Origin: an uncultured Clostridia bacterium
GTDB lineage: Bacteria; Bacillota; Clostridia; TANB77; CAG-508
Direction of reading: 5' to 3'
Length of the DNA: 64,000 nucleotides
NCBI GenBank assembly: GCA_947581805.1
Contig: CANPVM010000003.1
Location: forward strand, 137,775-201,774
A program made the position numbers and the translations under genes. Under the pieces are notes generated by a model, which was not told where the DNA came from, searched no databases, and saw only the letters and a list, made by a program, of their open reading frames with translations. Shown in pieces: positions 24,096 through 26,808 of the stretch (positions are counted from its first letter, which is position 1; every line of letters begins with the position of its first letter).

Positions 24096-24328
24096 TAAAA
24101 TTCCCCCTTTTTTTTATATTTACCACATATATTATAGCATATTTTTCTATTTCTGTAAATATATTCAGCTTTTATTTTTTTATGTTTTATGCTACTTTTT
24201 ACTGATGATTTTTTAGATTTTCTTGCTTTTTTATGTAATATACTATATAATATTGTTACTTTATGCAAAAAGCATGTTTTCTTTGTATTGCTAATTAGCA
24301 TAACAAAAAATTAAAGGAGGGCTTTAAA

Positions 24329-25177
24329 ATGAAGCAAATCGGAAAAGGAAAAGTACGGGATATTTATGATGTAGGAGATGAGTTGGTACTCGTCACATCT
24401 GATAGGGTATCTGCTTTTGATGTAGTTCTTCCTAACATCATTCCTCACAAAGGAGAGATTTTGAACCAAATCTCAGCATTTTGGTTTTACTACACCGATT
24501 GGATTGTTCCTAATCACATGATTTCCATTGACAATGCAGATATGCCGGAGGAGTTTCAAGGAGAAGAATTCCAAGGTCGCTGCATGCTGGTGAAAAAGCT
24601 GAAAATGCTCCCTATTGAGTGTATCGTTAGGGGCTACATTACCGGCTCTGGTTGGGAAAGCTACAAGAAAAATGGTTCTGTGTGTGGTATTACCTTGCCG
24701 GAAGGATTGTTGGAGTCTGAGAAACTTCCTAACCCCATTTACACACCTACCACCAAAGCAGTTGAAGGACATGATGAGCCCATTTCCTTTGAGCAGACTG
24801 CCGATTTAGTGGGAGAGGCTCTGGCTACTCAGCTTAAAGAAAAGAGTATCGAAATTTACTCTACTTGTGCTGAGTATGCAAGAGAAAAAGGCATTATCAT
24901 TGCTGATACCAAGTTCGAGTTTGGCCTTGACGAAGATGGCAACTTGGTTTTGGCAGATGAAGTTCTTACTCCTGACAGTAGCCGTTTTTGGCCGGCTGAT
25001 AAGTATGTTGTAGGTAAATCGCAGACAAGCTATGACAAGCAGTATTTAAGAGACTGGCTTAAGTCCACTGGTTGGGATAAGCAGCCGCCGGCTCCGGAAC
25101 TTCCTGATGTTGTTGTGGATGTTACGTGTGCTAAATATGTAGAAGCATATGAAGCACTCACTGGGCTTACCTTCTAA
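24329..25177 (+). CDS. purC: Phosphoribosylaminoimidazole-succinocarboxamide synthase (SAICAR synthetase), in a GC-anomalous islet
   Basis: 282 aa; GKVRDIY..SDRVSAFD signature; RBS AAAGGAGGG. Confidence 0.9.
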   Translation: MKQIGKGKVRDIYDVGDELVLVTSDRVSAFDVVLPNIIPHKGEILNQISAFWFYYTDWIVPNHMISIDNADMPEEFQGEEFQGRCMLVKKLKMLPIECIVRGYITGSGWESYKKNGSVCGITLPEGLLESEKLPNPIYTPTTKAVEGHDEPISFEQTADLVGEALATQLKEKSIEIYSTCAEYAREKGIIIADTKFEFGLDEDGNLVLADEVLTPDSSRFWPADKYVVGKSQTSYDKQYLRDWLKSTGWDKQPPAPELPDVVVDVTCAKYVEAYEALTGLTF

Positions 25178-25186
25178 TAAGGTAGC

Positions 25187-25225
25187 AAAAAGAGACAAAT
25201 CATTGATTTGTCTCTTTTTTGTTTT
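25187..25225. terminator. Bidirectional terminator between convergent purC and purB (AAAAGAGACAAAT-cattg-ATTTGTCTCTTTT)
   Basis: 13-bp perfect stem flanked by A/T runs. Confidence 0.75.
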
Positions 25226-25235
25226 TTGTAAGAAA

Positions 25236-26681
25236 TTATACCTTTACATCCATATTAATGTCTGTTAAGAATTCCTTATTTTCTTCCAGAACAGGATATA
25301 CATACTGGTGCAAGTAATCAGTTACCTGATTTGCACATCTTCCCACCAGTTTCTTTGGATTACAGGCCGCCTGTACTTCCTCTAAGGTCATACCAAAAAT
25401 TGAATCATCTGCGATTCTGTTCAGTAAATCGTTGTCCAACCCTTCCTGTTTTACCCTGCTTCCTGCTTCCATAGAATGCACACGAATATGCTCGTGCAGT
25501 TCCTGCCTGTTGCCACCTTTTTTTACTGCATCCATAATGATGTTTTCGGTAGCCATAAAAGGAAGTTCTTCGTTCAAGCGTTTTTCAATCACTTTTTCAT
25601 TGACCACCATACCATTGACTACATTGGCACAAATAATTAGCACCGCATCCGTTGCTAAAAAAGTTTCCGGAATACTCATACGCCTGTTAGCAGAATCATC
25701 CAAAGTCCTTTCGAGCCACTGGTCACAAGCAGTACTAGACGCATTGCCTGCTTCGTTTATGACATAGCGTGCCAAAGAGCAAATACGTTCAGAACGCATC
25801 GGATTACGCTTATAGGCCATAGCAGAAGAACCAATCTGCTTCTTTTCAAAAGGTTCTTCTATTTCCTTATCATGCTGAAGCAGGCGGATATCTTTTGCCA
25901 TTTTGTAAGCACTGGAAGCAATGGCAGCTAAGCTGTTTAAAATTCGCTGATCCAAATGTCTGGGATAAGTTTGCCCAGAAATAGGGTAAACTTCGTTAAA
26001 ACCGAACTTTCTTGCAATGAGTAAGTCTAACTGTTTTACTTTTTCTTCATCTCCTTCAAAAATTTCCATAAAGGTAGAAGAGGTGCCAGTCGCTCCTCTG
26101 CATCCAAGCATCTTCAGATGAGATAGGGTAAAGTCCAGCTCCTCCAAGTTTTCAACAAAATTTTGGAGCCAAAGTGCTTCCCTTCTGCCAACCGTTACCG
26201 GTGATGCCGGTTGATAATGCGTATAGCCCAATGTAGGAATGTCCTTGTGTGCTTCCGCCGAATCGGCAAGCAGTTTAATCACTCCCAAAAGGCGCTTCTT
26301 GATGATTTTTAAGCCCTCCTGAATGTTTAAGATGTCTGTGTTATCTGTAACATAGCATGAGGTTGCACCCCAGTGGATGATACCTGCAGCTTTTGGTGCC
26401 TGCTGGCCATAAGCATAAACATGAGCCATTACATCATGCCGGACTTCTTTTTCTCTTGCATTTGCCACATCATAGTTGATGTCGTAAATGTGCTCTTTCA
26501 TCTGTGCAATCTGTTCGTCCGTAATTTCGGTTTTGCCCAATTCTTTTTCTGCTTCTGCCAGTGCCACCCACAGTTTTCGCCAAGTAGAGAACTTAACATC
26601 ATCGGAAAAGAGATGTTTCATTTCTTCACTTGCATACCGTCCATTGAGTGGAGTTTGATAGATATCTGTTCCTGTTTTCAT
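25236..26681 (-). CDS. purB: Adenylosuccinate lyase
   Basis: Fumarate-lyase family with ASL C-terminal region; likely start MKTGTD (ATG 26681) because GGAGGG RBS lies inside the upstream ATG codons; GC-rich like purC. Confidence 0.88.
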   Translation of the reverse strand: MKTGTDIYQTPLNGRYASEEMKHLFSDDVKFSTWRKLWVALAEAEKELGKTEITDEQIAQMKEHIYDINYDVANAREKEVRHDVMAHVYAYGQQAPKAAGIIHWGATSCYVTDNTDILNIQEGLKIIKKRLLGVIKLLADSAEAHKDIPTLGYTHYQPASPVTVGRREALWLQNFVENLEELDFTLSHLKMLGCRGATGTSSTFMEIFEGDEEKVKQLDLLIARKFGFNEVYPISGQTYPRHLDQRILNSLAAIASSAYKMAKDIRLLQHDKEIEEPFEKKQIGSSAMAYKRNPMRSERICSLARYVINEAGNASSTACDQWLERTLDDSANRRMSIPETFLATDAVLIICANVVNGMVVNEKVIEKRLNEELPFMATENIIMDAVKKGGNRQELHEHIRVHSMEAGSRVKQEGLDNDLLNRIADDSIFGMTLEEVQAACNPKKLVGRCANQVTDYLHQYVYPVLEENKEFLTDINMDVKV

Positions 26682-26808
26682 TTTTGAATTGCCCTCCAAT
26701 GATTTTATTATTTTCTAGACTTTTCTAGAATATTGTCATTTTATCATAAGTTTATGTAAATTTCAATATTTTTCTATTTTTTTCTTTCTTTTCATTAAAT
26801 AAAGCTCC

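Follow-up and report, generated by a model that had tools for sequence, protein, structure and literature searches.

How should a sharp island of GC-rich DNA in an AT-rich bacterial chromosome be read? The question is raised by a stretch of 64,000 nucleotides (the window) from contig CANPVM010000003.1 of an uncultured Clostridia bacterium of the TANB77/CAG-508 lineage, in which two genes of purine synthesis, purC and purB, form an islet (24300-26720) in DNA of otherwise low GC content. An earlier note on the window, made from its sequence only, took the islet for a relatively recent acquisition from a higher-GC donor. We found that the anomaly is an old, lineage-wide feature of related gut Clostridia, and that the composition of the islet should not be taken as a sign of recent arrival; at each of the three codon positions it is roughly that of a Firmicute of 40% GC. 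With middling confidence, we favour the explanation that purC and purB belong to an anciently fixed and probably xenologous PurB/PurC lineage that is old at this locus and mainly vertically inherited, and whose equilibration to the composition of its host was retarded or reset. This lineage appears to occur only within one clade of uncultured Clostridia from the gut, all very AT-rich (25-30% GC). TANB77/CAG-508 has been described as a gut clade that is uncultured and has reduced genomes of distinct GC content (PMC11680825), which we use as a taxonomic lead only. Our literature search found no earlier description of the pattern reported here.

The pur pair stands apart from the rest of the window

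The two pur genes are the only compositional outliers in the window. The window as a whole is 30.0% GC; the islet is 41.7% GC and the remainder 29.6%. The contrast described in the earlier note is real, and its figure of about 45% GC is a slight overestimate of the mean, as 45-48% is attained in single 200-bp windows of the islet. We compared 46 long open reading frames (ORFs), namely purC, purB, and 44 others. The GC content of third codon positions (GC3) was 0.410 for purC and 0.398 for purB, approximately 8 standard deviations from the other 44 ORFs (mean 0.176, standard deviation 0.028, maximum 0.248), and a stop-to-stop survey of ORFs in the 64 kb found no third GC3 outlier. This profile of GC and codon usage had been proposed as a check, and the pur pair is all that it picks out.

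The anomaly extends to codons and amino acids. The GC-rich codon use that had been noticed is borne out by counts per 1000 codons in pur versus host genes: CTG 17 versus 0.5, CCG 13 versus 0.6, CGG 3.9 versus 0.1, and CAG 26 versus 2.2. Relative synonymous codon usage correlated with that of the host at 0.25-0.50 for the pur genes, compared to a median of 0.94 for host genes. The amino-acid composition of the pur genes is shifted as well, with K/(K+R) of 0.47-0.60. Genes expected to be highly expressed do not have this composition: GC3 is 0.15-0.20 in rpsG and rpsL of the host and approximately 0.09 in rplT, HU, and ssb of relatives. Translational selection for high expression was rejected as a cause on these grounds, the genes for ribosomal proteins, HU, and ssb being AT-rich.

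The DNA around the two genes is host-like, as the earlier note had said of the flanks, ribosome-binding sites (RBSs), and terminator. The three intergenic stretches flanking the pur genes are 21-26% GC, and the intergenic mean of the window is 24 ± 6%. As a separate observation, intergenic GC in the window (24.1%) exceeds the GC of host third codon positions (17.6%), indicating that host synonymous sites are more AT-rich than non-coding DNA.

The pair was in its slot before related lineages split

The pur pair is found at the same site, and is GC-rich there, in relatives whose host genes have diverged far. In the window the pair falls within the cell-division (dcw) gene cluster, with murE to one side of it and ltaS to the other. 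L169 (contigs are designated by L and a number) is a 186-kb contig from another assembly, and L170 is from a different run. Gene order in both is topA-murG-ftsW-mraY-murE-GNAT-purC> <purB-ltaS-PBP (218 aa)-PBP (505 aa)-172 aa-rsmH-mraZ-sortase-ksgA (PBP, penicillin-binding protein; aa, amino acids), and the window has the same order save for two insertions. In L169, GC3 is 0.355 for purC and 0.311 for purB, against 0.07-0.12 for the host; over all neighbours the range is 0.07-0.17, in a background still more AT-rich than that of the window.

Divergence of the pur proteins is in step with that of host proteins. Identity between the window and L169 is 71-96% for host proteins, 80-81% for PurC, and 85% for PurB. 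Host four-fold degenerate sites are 0.49-0.63 identical, compared to 0.37-0.54 expected from composition alone. A closer relative with the same neighbourhood, L166, has a PurB that is 96% identical to that of the window. Given the same slot and the matching divergence in L169/L170 and L166, we conclude that the pair occupied its place in the dcw cluster before the organism of the window split from relatives at the level of genus or family. A relatively recent acquisition does not agree with a slot that is GC-rich in L169/L170 and present in L166 while host four-fold sites are near saturation.

L166 also differs from the window at this locus. There purB and purC are separated by an inserted DUF4874/DUF4832 gene (L166 3360-5106), ltaS is absent, and the terminator sequence is duplicated on the far side of the inserted gene.

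GC-rich purB genes recur across AT-rich Clostridia

The same anomaly is present in most other contexts in which close relatives of this PurB were found. Besides the window, we looked at eleven contexts, with PurB relatives at 96, 82, 79, 78, 77, 76, 75, 74, 72, and 68% identity, plus L169 and L002; L002, a match in a species representative, has the same PurB sequence as L171, and the two were treated as one context. All eleven are in very AT-rich DNA, with flanks of 24-30% GC and host GC3 of 0.07-0.21. In ten of the eleven (L002/L171, L082, L083, L084/85, L166, L167/168, L169/170, L173, L174, and L175/176), purB is a one-gene GC-rich islet of 39-48% GC with GC3 of 0.295-0.535. By comparison, purB was within approximately 0-3 GC points of its own flanks in about 150 other genomes and metagenome contigs. 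The loci differ between lineages (Table 1).

The remaining context, L172, has a host-like purB (GC3 0.12) at the site where L171 has 0.49 and L082 has 0.31, and its PurB is nested within a PurB clade whose other members are encoded by GC-rich genes. A host-like purB is also found in L021, L041, L043, and L070, which are further AT-rich Clostridia.

A few other genes share the anomaly. Among approximately 200 ORFs near purB, which include the context of purC for three lineages, the other strong GC3 outliers were few: purC (three genomes), purA and the gene for meso-diaminopimelate dehydrogenase (DAPDH) in L167, pfk in L175, and an IS200 transposase gene in L171. The purA, DAPDH, and pfk genes are isolated one-gene islets with GC3 of 0.32-0.39 versus approximately 0.1 for the host. 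GC3 of different outliers is alike within a genome: 0.40/0.41 in the window, 0.31/0.355 in L169, 0.41/0.39/0.39 for purB/purA/DAPDH in L167, and 0.295/0.32 for purB/pfk in L175.

Some neighbours of purB in these contexts have features of their own. In two independent assemblies of one AT-rich relative, carB, directly upstream of the GC-rich purB, is present as three consecutive ORFs (L085 5108-9795; 331/332, 397, and 349 aa) and may be a split gene or a pseudogene. In L082 (8872-9807 and 11522-13861), and likewise in L171 and L172, purB is flanked by a 311-aa Replic_Relax-like protein and a 779-aa protein resembling TraG and coupling proteins. These are unusually well conserved (87-90% and 78% in amino-acid sequence, respectively), are conserved at synonymous sites, and lie among housekeeping genes; they may be domesticated conjugation genes.

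PurB proteins of AT-rich hosts form an exclusive clade

A neighbour-joining tree of this one protein (101 PurBs, 12 from AT-rich hosts and 89 from other genomes) placed the 12 AT-host PurBs in a monophyletic group on a long stem in 200 of 200 bootstraps. They are 62-96% identical to each other, and outsiders are at most 65% identical among the matches listed. The nearest outsiders, at 62-65%, are from a 'Clostridiales' metagenome-assembled genome (MAG), Ca. Metalachnospira, Hominilimicola, and several rabbit and human gut contigs; in all of these, purB and its flanks are alike in GC content. The matches listed from a metagenome scan were all at 64% identity or below. Of the top 120 PurB matches in the database, approximately 95% have a 'GC-type' amino-acid composition. 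An exclusive clade with full bootstrap support, and GC-normal PurBs that are at most 65% identical among those listed, are a further departure from what a recent acquisition predicts.

No donor was found among the matches listed, the best PurB from a genome of normal GC being 65% identical. Carriage by phage or plasmid was considered and rejected: neither viral contigs nor genuine plasmids yielded a PurB relative, and the 'plasmid' matches were mislabelled chromosomes at 60% identity or below. Synteny of purB with outgroups was also set aside as proof that the gene is native, as the only associations, carB...purB and purB-glmS, are loose and too weak. Of the higher-GC donor proposed in the earlier note, a foreign origin at higher GC is still the simplest account and is plausible for the PurB/PurC lineage, with no donor to show among the matches listed. 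The note had also held that trees placing the two proteins within the host clade, together with highly expressed genes of the same composition, would tell against transfer. The PurB tree does put the gene in a lineage confined to the host clade, whereas the highly expressed genes are AT-rich, so half of this expectation is borne out.

Neutral decay from a single ancient entry fits poorly

The explanation we favour would begin with a single horizontal entry into the ancestor of the clade, from a donor among Clostridia of moderate GC content (approximately 40-50%). Mostly vertical inheritance with relocations would have followed, and equilibration to the composition of the host would have been slowed or repeatedly reset. 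The likeliest cause of the slowing would be exchange of whole-gene alleles among members of the clade; selection on the genes' own codon composition would be the alternative cause.

Several results weigh against this explanation, those on the expected rate of decay among them. At synonymous third positions, the correlation between the window and L169 in S/W state (G or C versus A or T) was 0.098 for host genes (confidence interval 0.058-0.141; 3535 sites) and 0.187 for the pur genes (0.10-0.27; 588 sites). Decay at the host rate demands that GC3 of the pur genes was 0.70-0.83 when the window and L169 split, and decay at the pur genes' own apparent rate demands approximately 0.63. Such values are possible only if the donor was far richer in GC than one would judge from GC1 and GC2. 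We calibrated codon positions with 131 native purBs (GC1 = 0.426 + 0.237 GC3, r = 0.93). The purB of the window falls on this native line (z = 0.0 for GC1 and -0.1 for GC2), GC1 and GC2 each imply a genome of approximately 40-41% GC, and disequilibrium between codon positions was not seen relative to these 131 genes. The excess of GC1 that is expected of ongoing decay was found only in L082, L083, and L175 (z = 1.5-2.1).

The anomaly also persists over distances at which synonymous sites are saturated. Four-fold identity between the purBs of L082 and L171 is 0.32, compared to 0.29 expected, indicating saturation, and the deeper PurB splits (62-75% identity) keep GC3 of 0.3-0.54 with no phylogenetic trend. 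Across the clade GC3 is continuous from 0.12 to 0.54, and in L172 it is fully host-like at a site where the copies of relatives are GC-rich. A non-stationary two-state maximum-likelihood analysis weakly disfavoured a host-like equilibrium on the branches of the window and L166 (2dlnL of 12.6, 6.9, and 5.7 with three outgroup sets). Polarisation by parsimony, which gave an excess of AT->GC among synonymous changes, was discarded, as the host-gene control had the same 4:1 excess and the result for the pur genes matches an uninformative outgroup.

GC3 is uniform along every ORF, without mosaics or AT-rich ends, which argues against recombination of parts of genes, and mosaic recombination was dropped as unsupported. 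A GC-moderate reservoir within the PurB clade was seen in none of the eleven further contexts. Since the tests of amelioration fit poorly, an ancient entry that happened once is not enough and some further process would be required; with plain neutral decay, such an entry is hard to sustain. That further process is itself putative, and there are two live candidates for what maintains the GC-richness, whole-gene exchange within the clade and selection on composition.

There are signs that alleles have been exchanged. Normalised four-fold similarity between the window and L166 is 0.67 ± 0.04 for purB, 0.28 ± 0.07 for the adjacent purC, and approximately 0.49 for a neighbouring host gene, and purC is about equally distant from L166 and L169. 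The two pur genes therefore differ in history. Among L082, L171, and L172, which form a syntenic trio, PurB is 68-71% identical, most host proteins are more similar (57-97%, typically 73-88%), and the three PurBs were monophyletic in 0 of 200 bootstraps. Next to the GC-richest copies are, in L171/L002, the IS200 transposase gene and, in L173, a gene for a serine recombinase. The window lacks marker genes in common with most of the sampled loci.

Selection, hidden reservoirs, and weaker alternatives

Selection specific to certain genes might hold purA, purB, purC, pfk, and ddh at a compositional equilibrium of their own, and the genes may even be native; we regard this as rather unlikely. Possible reasons would be that host-rare codons gate or slow translation, or that a higher GC content stabilises mRNAs in an AT-rich cell. 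The proposal would account for a composition that persists across splits far deeper than the saturation of host synonymous sites. The synonymous sites of L082 and L171 have turned over and their composition has stayed, and the purB of the window lies on the equilibrium line for codon positions. GC3 is even from the first to the last codon and falls at the ends of the ORF; its level is specific to a genome, yet common to different outlier genes; and purC, purA, DAPDH, and pfk are almost the sole strong outliers among the neighbouring ORFs, a list that is nonetheless small and gathered around purB. The likelihood analysis points in the same direction, but is weak, and its parsimony version is an artefact. 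The mechanism is hypothetical, the genes for ribosomal proteins and other highly expressed genes are AT-rich, and L172 does well with an AT-rich purB. L021, L041, L043, and L070 have a host-like purB. Pure selection on codons does not predict the shift in amino acids (K/(K+R) of 0.47-0.60).

A related idea, that genes for synthesis of adenosine monophosphate (AMP) avoid A to spare it in their mRNA, was rejected. A at third positions is halved and T is unchanged in these genes, but native purBs of genomes of 36-46% GC are alike in this; the purB of other AT-rich Clostridia is rich in A, and the idea does not suit pfk and ddh.

Recurrent replacement from an unsampled, GC-moderate reservoir, or from a mobile element specific to the clade, would make the copies younger than their hosts and the L172 gene an old, equilibrated copy. 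We give this a minor share of belief. It would explain why the loci differ between lineages, why purB and purC have discordant histories between the window and L166, and why the PurB tree conflicts with synteny in L082, L171, and L172. A continuous range of GC3 without phylogenetic trend is what it predicts, and genes arriving in a batch would have a common GC3 within a genome. Genes for an IS200 element, a serine recombinase, and TraG-like and Replic_Relax-like proteins adjoin some copies; the last two are, however, AT-rich, conserved, and chromosomal. All eleven further contexts are AT-rich chromosomes, and no reservoir context was found even though approximately 95% of the top 120 matches are of GC type. 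Matches on viral contigs or true plasmids are lacking, the flanks are host-like to within approximately 10-20 nt of the ORFs, and the islets of most lineages are single genes without remnants of an element.

GC-biased gene conversion, in which loci that recombine unusually often between strains would be repaired with a bias to GC, has been proposed for bacteria (PMC4450053). In its favour, GC is raised at all three codon positions and evenly along the genes, and there are signs of allele exchange. The effect nevertheless ends at the boundaries of the ORFs and spares adjacent genes, and the GC-richness follows the gene to different loci. Effect sizes in bacteria, as reportedly given by Lassalle et al. 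in 2015, are small compared with the GC3 shift of 0.2-0.4 seen here. We consider this process very improbable as the cause.

It is just as hard to believe that this genome alone received a purC-purB cassette recently from a donor of higher GC. Such an event would fit a strong anomaly of composition and codon usage confined to two genes, values of GC1, GC2, and GC3 that resemble an unameliorated gene from a genome of approximately 40% GC, and the exact 14-mer ATATTTTTCTATTT that brackets the islet. Against it, L169/L170 and L166, with host genes that have diverged far, already have a GC-rich pair in this position, and the best PurB from a GC-normal genome among the matches listed is 65% identical. 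The site has no mobility genes or tRNA. The 14-mer is present in exactly two copies in the 64 kb (24139-24152 and 26766-26779), within a 29-nt imperfect direct repeat (76%), and was not found in L166 or L169; the two copies are probably chance or a decayed scar.

A chimera of GC-richer reads and an AT-rich contig, conceivable because the sources are metagenome assemblies, is ruled out for practical purposes by duplication in independent samples (junctions recur in L169/L170, L084/L085, L167/L168, L175/L176, and L002/L171), by the junction between host gene and purC at 100% identity in a separate contig (L001), and by RBSs and a terminator that are coherent with the genes.

Gene identities and local anatomy

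The islet reads as a working pair of housekeeping genes, judged from its sequence features. The assignments to purC and purB made in the earlier note are confirmed by curated models above their cut-offs. PurC scored 432 bits against NF010568 (cut-off 251; residues 2-280 on profile positions 14-294 of 297), 272 bits against TIGR00081 (cut-off 190), and 271 bits against PF01259. PurB scored 377 bits against TIGR00928 (cut-off 326), with both PF00206 (Lyase_1) and PF10397 (ADSL_C) found. Its translation carries the fumarate-lyase signature GSSAMAYKRN (pattern GSSxMxxKxN), and scores for the sister families PcaB, ArgH, FumC, and AspA were far under the cut-offs. Adenylosuccinate lyase (PurB) acts after PurC in the synthesis of inosine monophosphate and after PurA in that of AMP.

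Table 1. Coordinates of the islet features in the window and of related genes and loci in other contigs
Feature	Sequence	Position	Strand	Remarks
Upstream region of purC	window	24096..24328	+	intergenic, 21% GC; weak sigma-70-like matches only
purC, SAICAR synthetase, 282 aa	window	24329..25177	+	GC 43.3%, GC3 0.41; NF010568, TIGR00081, PF01259
Bidirectional intrinsic terminator	window	25187..25219	.	15-bp stem, 3-nt loop, A-run left, T-run right
purB, adenylosuccinate lyase, 481 aa	window	25236..26681	-	GC 42%, GC3 0.40; TIGR00928, PF00206 + PF10397
Upstream region of purB	window	26682..26808	-	21% GC; RBS GGAGGG at plus-strand 26692-26697
purB	L172	10073-11515
purB	L171	10001-11443
purB	L082	10001-11443
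purA	L167	4052-5362
DAPDH gene	L167	7698-8681
pfk	L175	17627-18724
purB locus	L083, L175			nudix-purB
purB locus	L084/85			carB-purB-vanY
purB locus	L167/168			ddh-purB-glmS
purB locus	L082, L171/L002, L172			rluD-S1-311aa-purB-TraG-like-murJ
purB locus	L173			Zip-purB

Each gene is predicted to have a promoter and RBS region of its own, AT-rich and of host type, with both transcripts ending at the common terminator. The purC RBS, AAGGAGGG, is at 24314-24321, 7 nt ahead of the ATG. The mechanically called purB ORF (25236-26699; 42.0% GC) extends to a TTG at 26699. We place the start at the ATG at 26681, which sits 10 nt past GGAGGG, because homologues are 480-481 aa long and the TTG belongs to the RBS. 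Upstream of purB there is a promoter-like sequence (TTGAAA-17-TAAAAT with an extended TG, 26766-26738), and approximately 100 nt of this upstream region is conserved along with purB in L166. The convergent arrangement around a common terminator holds up as described: the hairpin (-20.6 kcal/mol, z = -5.6) lies within the 58-bp spacer between purC and purB.

Two absences claimed in the earlier note were found again. No Rfam family of any kind attained its gathering threshold across the 64 kb, and no riboswitch was detected at E <= 1 over 23900-27000, where there were just terminator-like noise matches; this includes the region upstream of purC. The window contains no pur gene other than purC and purB; the replaced or re-acquired step in an auxotrophic, genome-reduced organism that the note suggested is a conjecture. 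There is also no tRNA in the window and no mobility gene adjoining the islet.

Neighbouring genes in the window

Outside the islet, the window is ordinary Clostridia housekeeping. It contains rpsG, rpsL, trmFO, topA, murG, spoVE/ftsW, mraY, murE, genes for PBPs, rsmH, mraZ, ksgA, ftsH, tilS, dnaB, rplI, pdp, rnhB, htrA, smc, and addB, as well as genes for surface proteins with cohesin, dockerin, and sortase features.

The two insertions in the dcw cluster relative to L169 are at 17146-24095 and 28795-35831. In one there are a flavorubredoxin-like gene and genes for a 1534-aa NPCBM/F5-8C/dockerin protein and a cohesin-LPXTG protein. Among the products of the other are sortase B, a SipW-like signal peptidase, and a pectate-lyase-like protein of 404 aa. 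Together they make up cellulosome-like surface machinery placed within a cell-division cluster.

A SpoVD/FtsI-like PBP is encoded by two consecutive ORFs, at 35882-38072 (-) in the window and 14464-16654 in L169: one of 505 aa (PBP dimer domain and N-terminal part of the transpeptidase) and one of 218 aa (C-terminal part of the transpeptidase and PASTA). L169 and L170 have this split in identical form, which makes it a conserved feature and no sequencing error. A full-length SpoVD-like PBP is encoded at 42530-44863 (+). A Snf2-family helicase gene at 6098-9485 (-) is likewise split into two overlapping ORFs (7296-9485 and 6098-7423), with 'pilus expression-regulating Snf2 helicase' as the best model, which suggests a frameshift, a pseudogene, or a programmed shift.

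Discussion

The pur islet has some features of a textbook transferred gene and lacks others. In the model of Lawrence and Ochman, horizontally acquired genes of atypical composition are said to undergo amelioration. Like such genes, the islet is gene-sized, is sharply off the resident genome in GC, GC3, and codon usage, and carries operational (metabolic) genes with host-type expression signals. Unlike them, it is not recent and is common to same-site relatives with near-saturated synonymous divergence; its lineage is confined to the host clade; GC1, GC2, and GC3 are not in disequilibrium in the window; and its borders are without mobility genes, tRNA, or convincing repeats.

The arrangement of the two genes is ordinary. 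L043, a 29% GC MAG of an 'uncultured Clostridium sp.', has the same tail-to-tail purB> <purC (PurC 65% and PurB 59% identical), and unlike the islet its pur genes match the composition of their genome (0.29 versus 0.29). The pair in L043 being native in composition, only composition is unusual in the window. In the spirochaete loci L044 and L075, purC and purB are in tandem, not convergent.

Known processes offer partial parallels for the composition. Rare codons can gate expression, as with bldA and TTA in Streptomyces, and translation can be codon-biased via tRNA modification. By analogy only, the pur genes are rich in codons that are rare in the host (CTG, CCG, CGG, and CAG; 4-26 versus 0.1-2.2 per 1000). 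In the islet, unlike with bldA, the composition of whole genes is shifted and not one codon, and gating would be a hypothesis. The islet resembles GC-biased gene conversion in bacteria in its gene-level elevation of GC3 linked to recombination, and differs in a magnitude and sharp gene limits that exceed the known effect.

A broader possibility, which we rate as improbable but not negligible, is that the anomaly is no fading trace of transfer and comes from clade-wide selection on the nucleotide or codon composition of a class of central nucleotide and energy genes. The class would have purB as an outlier in nearly every lineage and purC, purA, pfk, and ddh in some, with GC3 of 0.3-0.5 versus approximately 0.1. 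Possible forms of this selection are rare-codon gating of translation and stabilisation of mRNA.

The feature is an unremarkable gene pair that poses an evolutionary puzzle of moderate interest. As genes, purC and purB are ordinary, and the interest is in how a sharp anomaly of GC and codon usage is read, which is routinely as recent horizontal gene transfer. Here the anomaly is common to deeply diverged relatives and follows the gene across loci, a warning not to date transfers, or call a rescue from auxotrophy, by the composition of a single window. If neutral amelioration fails in these Clostridia, the clade would be a natural test case, with many independent lineages and an 'equilibrated' control in L172, for forces on synonymous composition beyond mutation bias, among them rare codons, properties of mRNA, biased conversion, and hidden gene flow.

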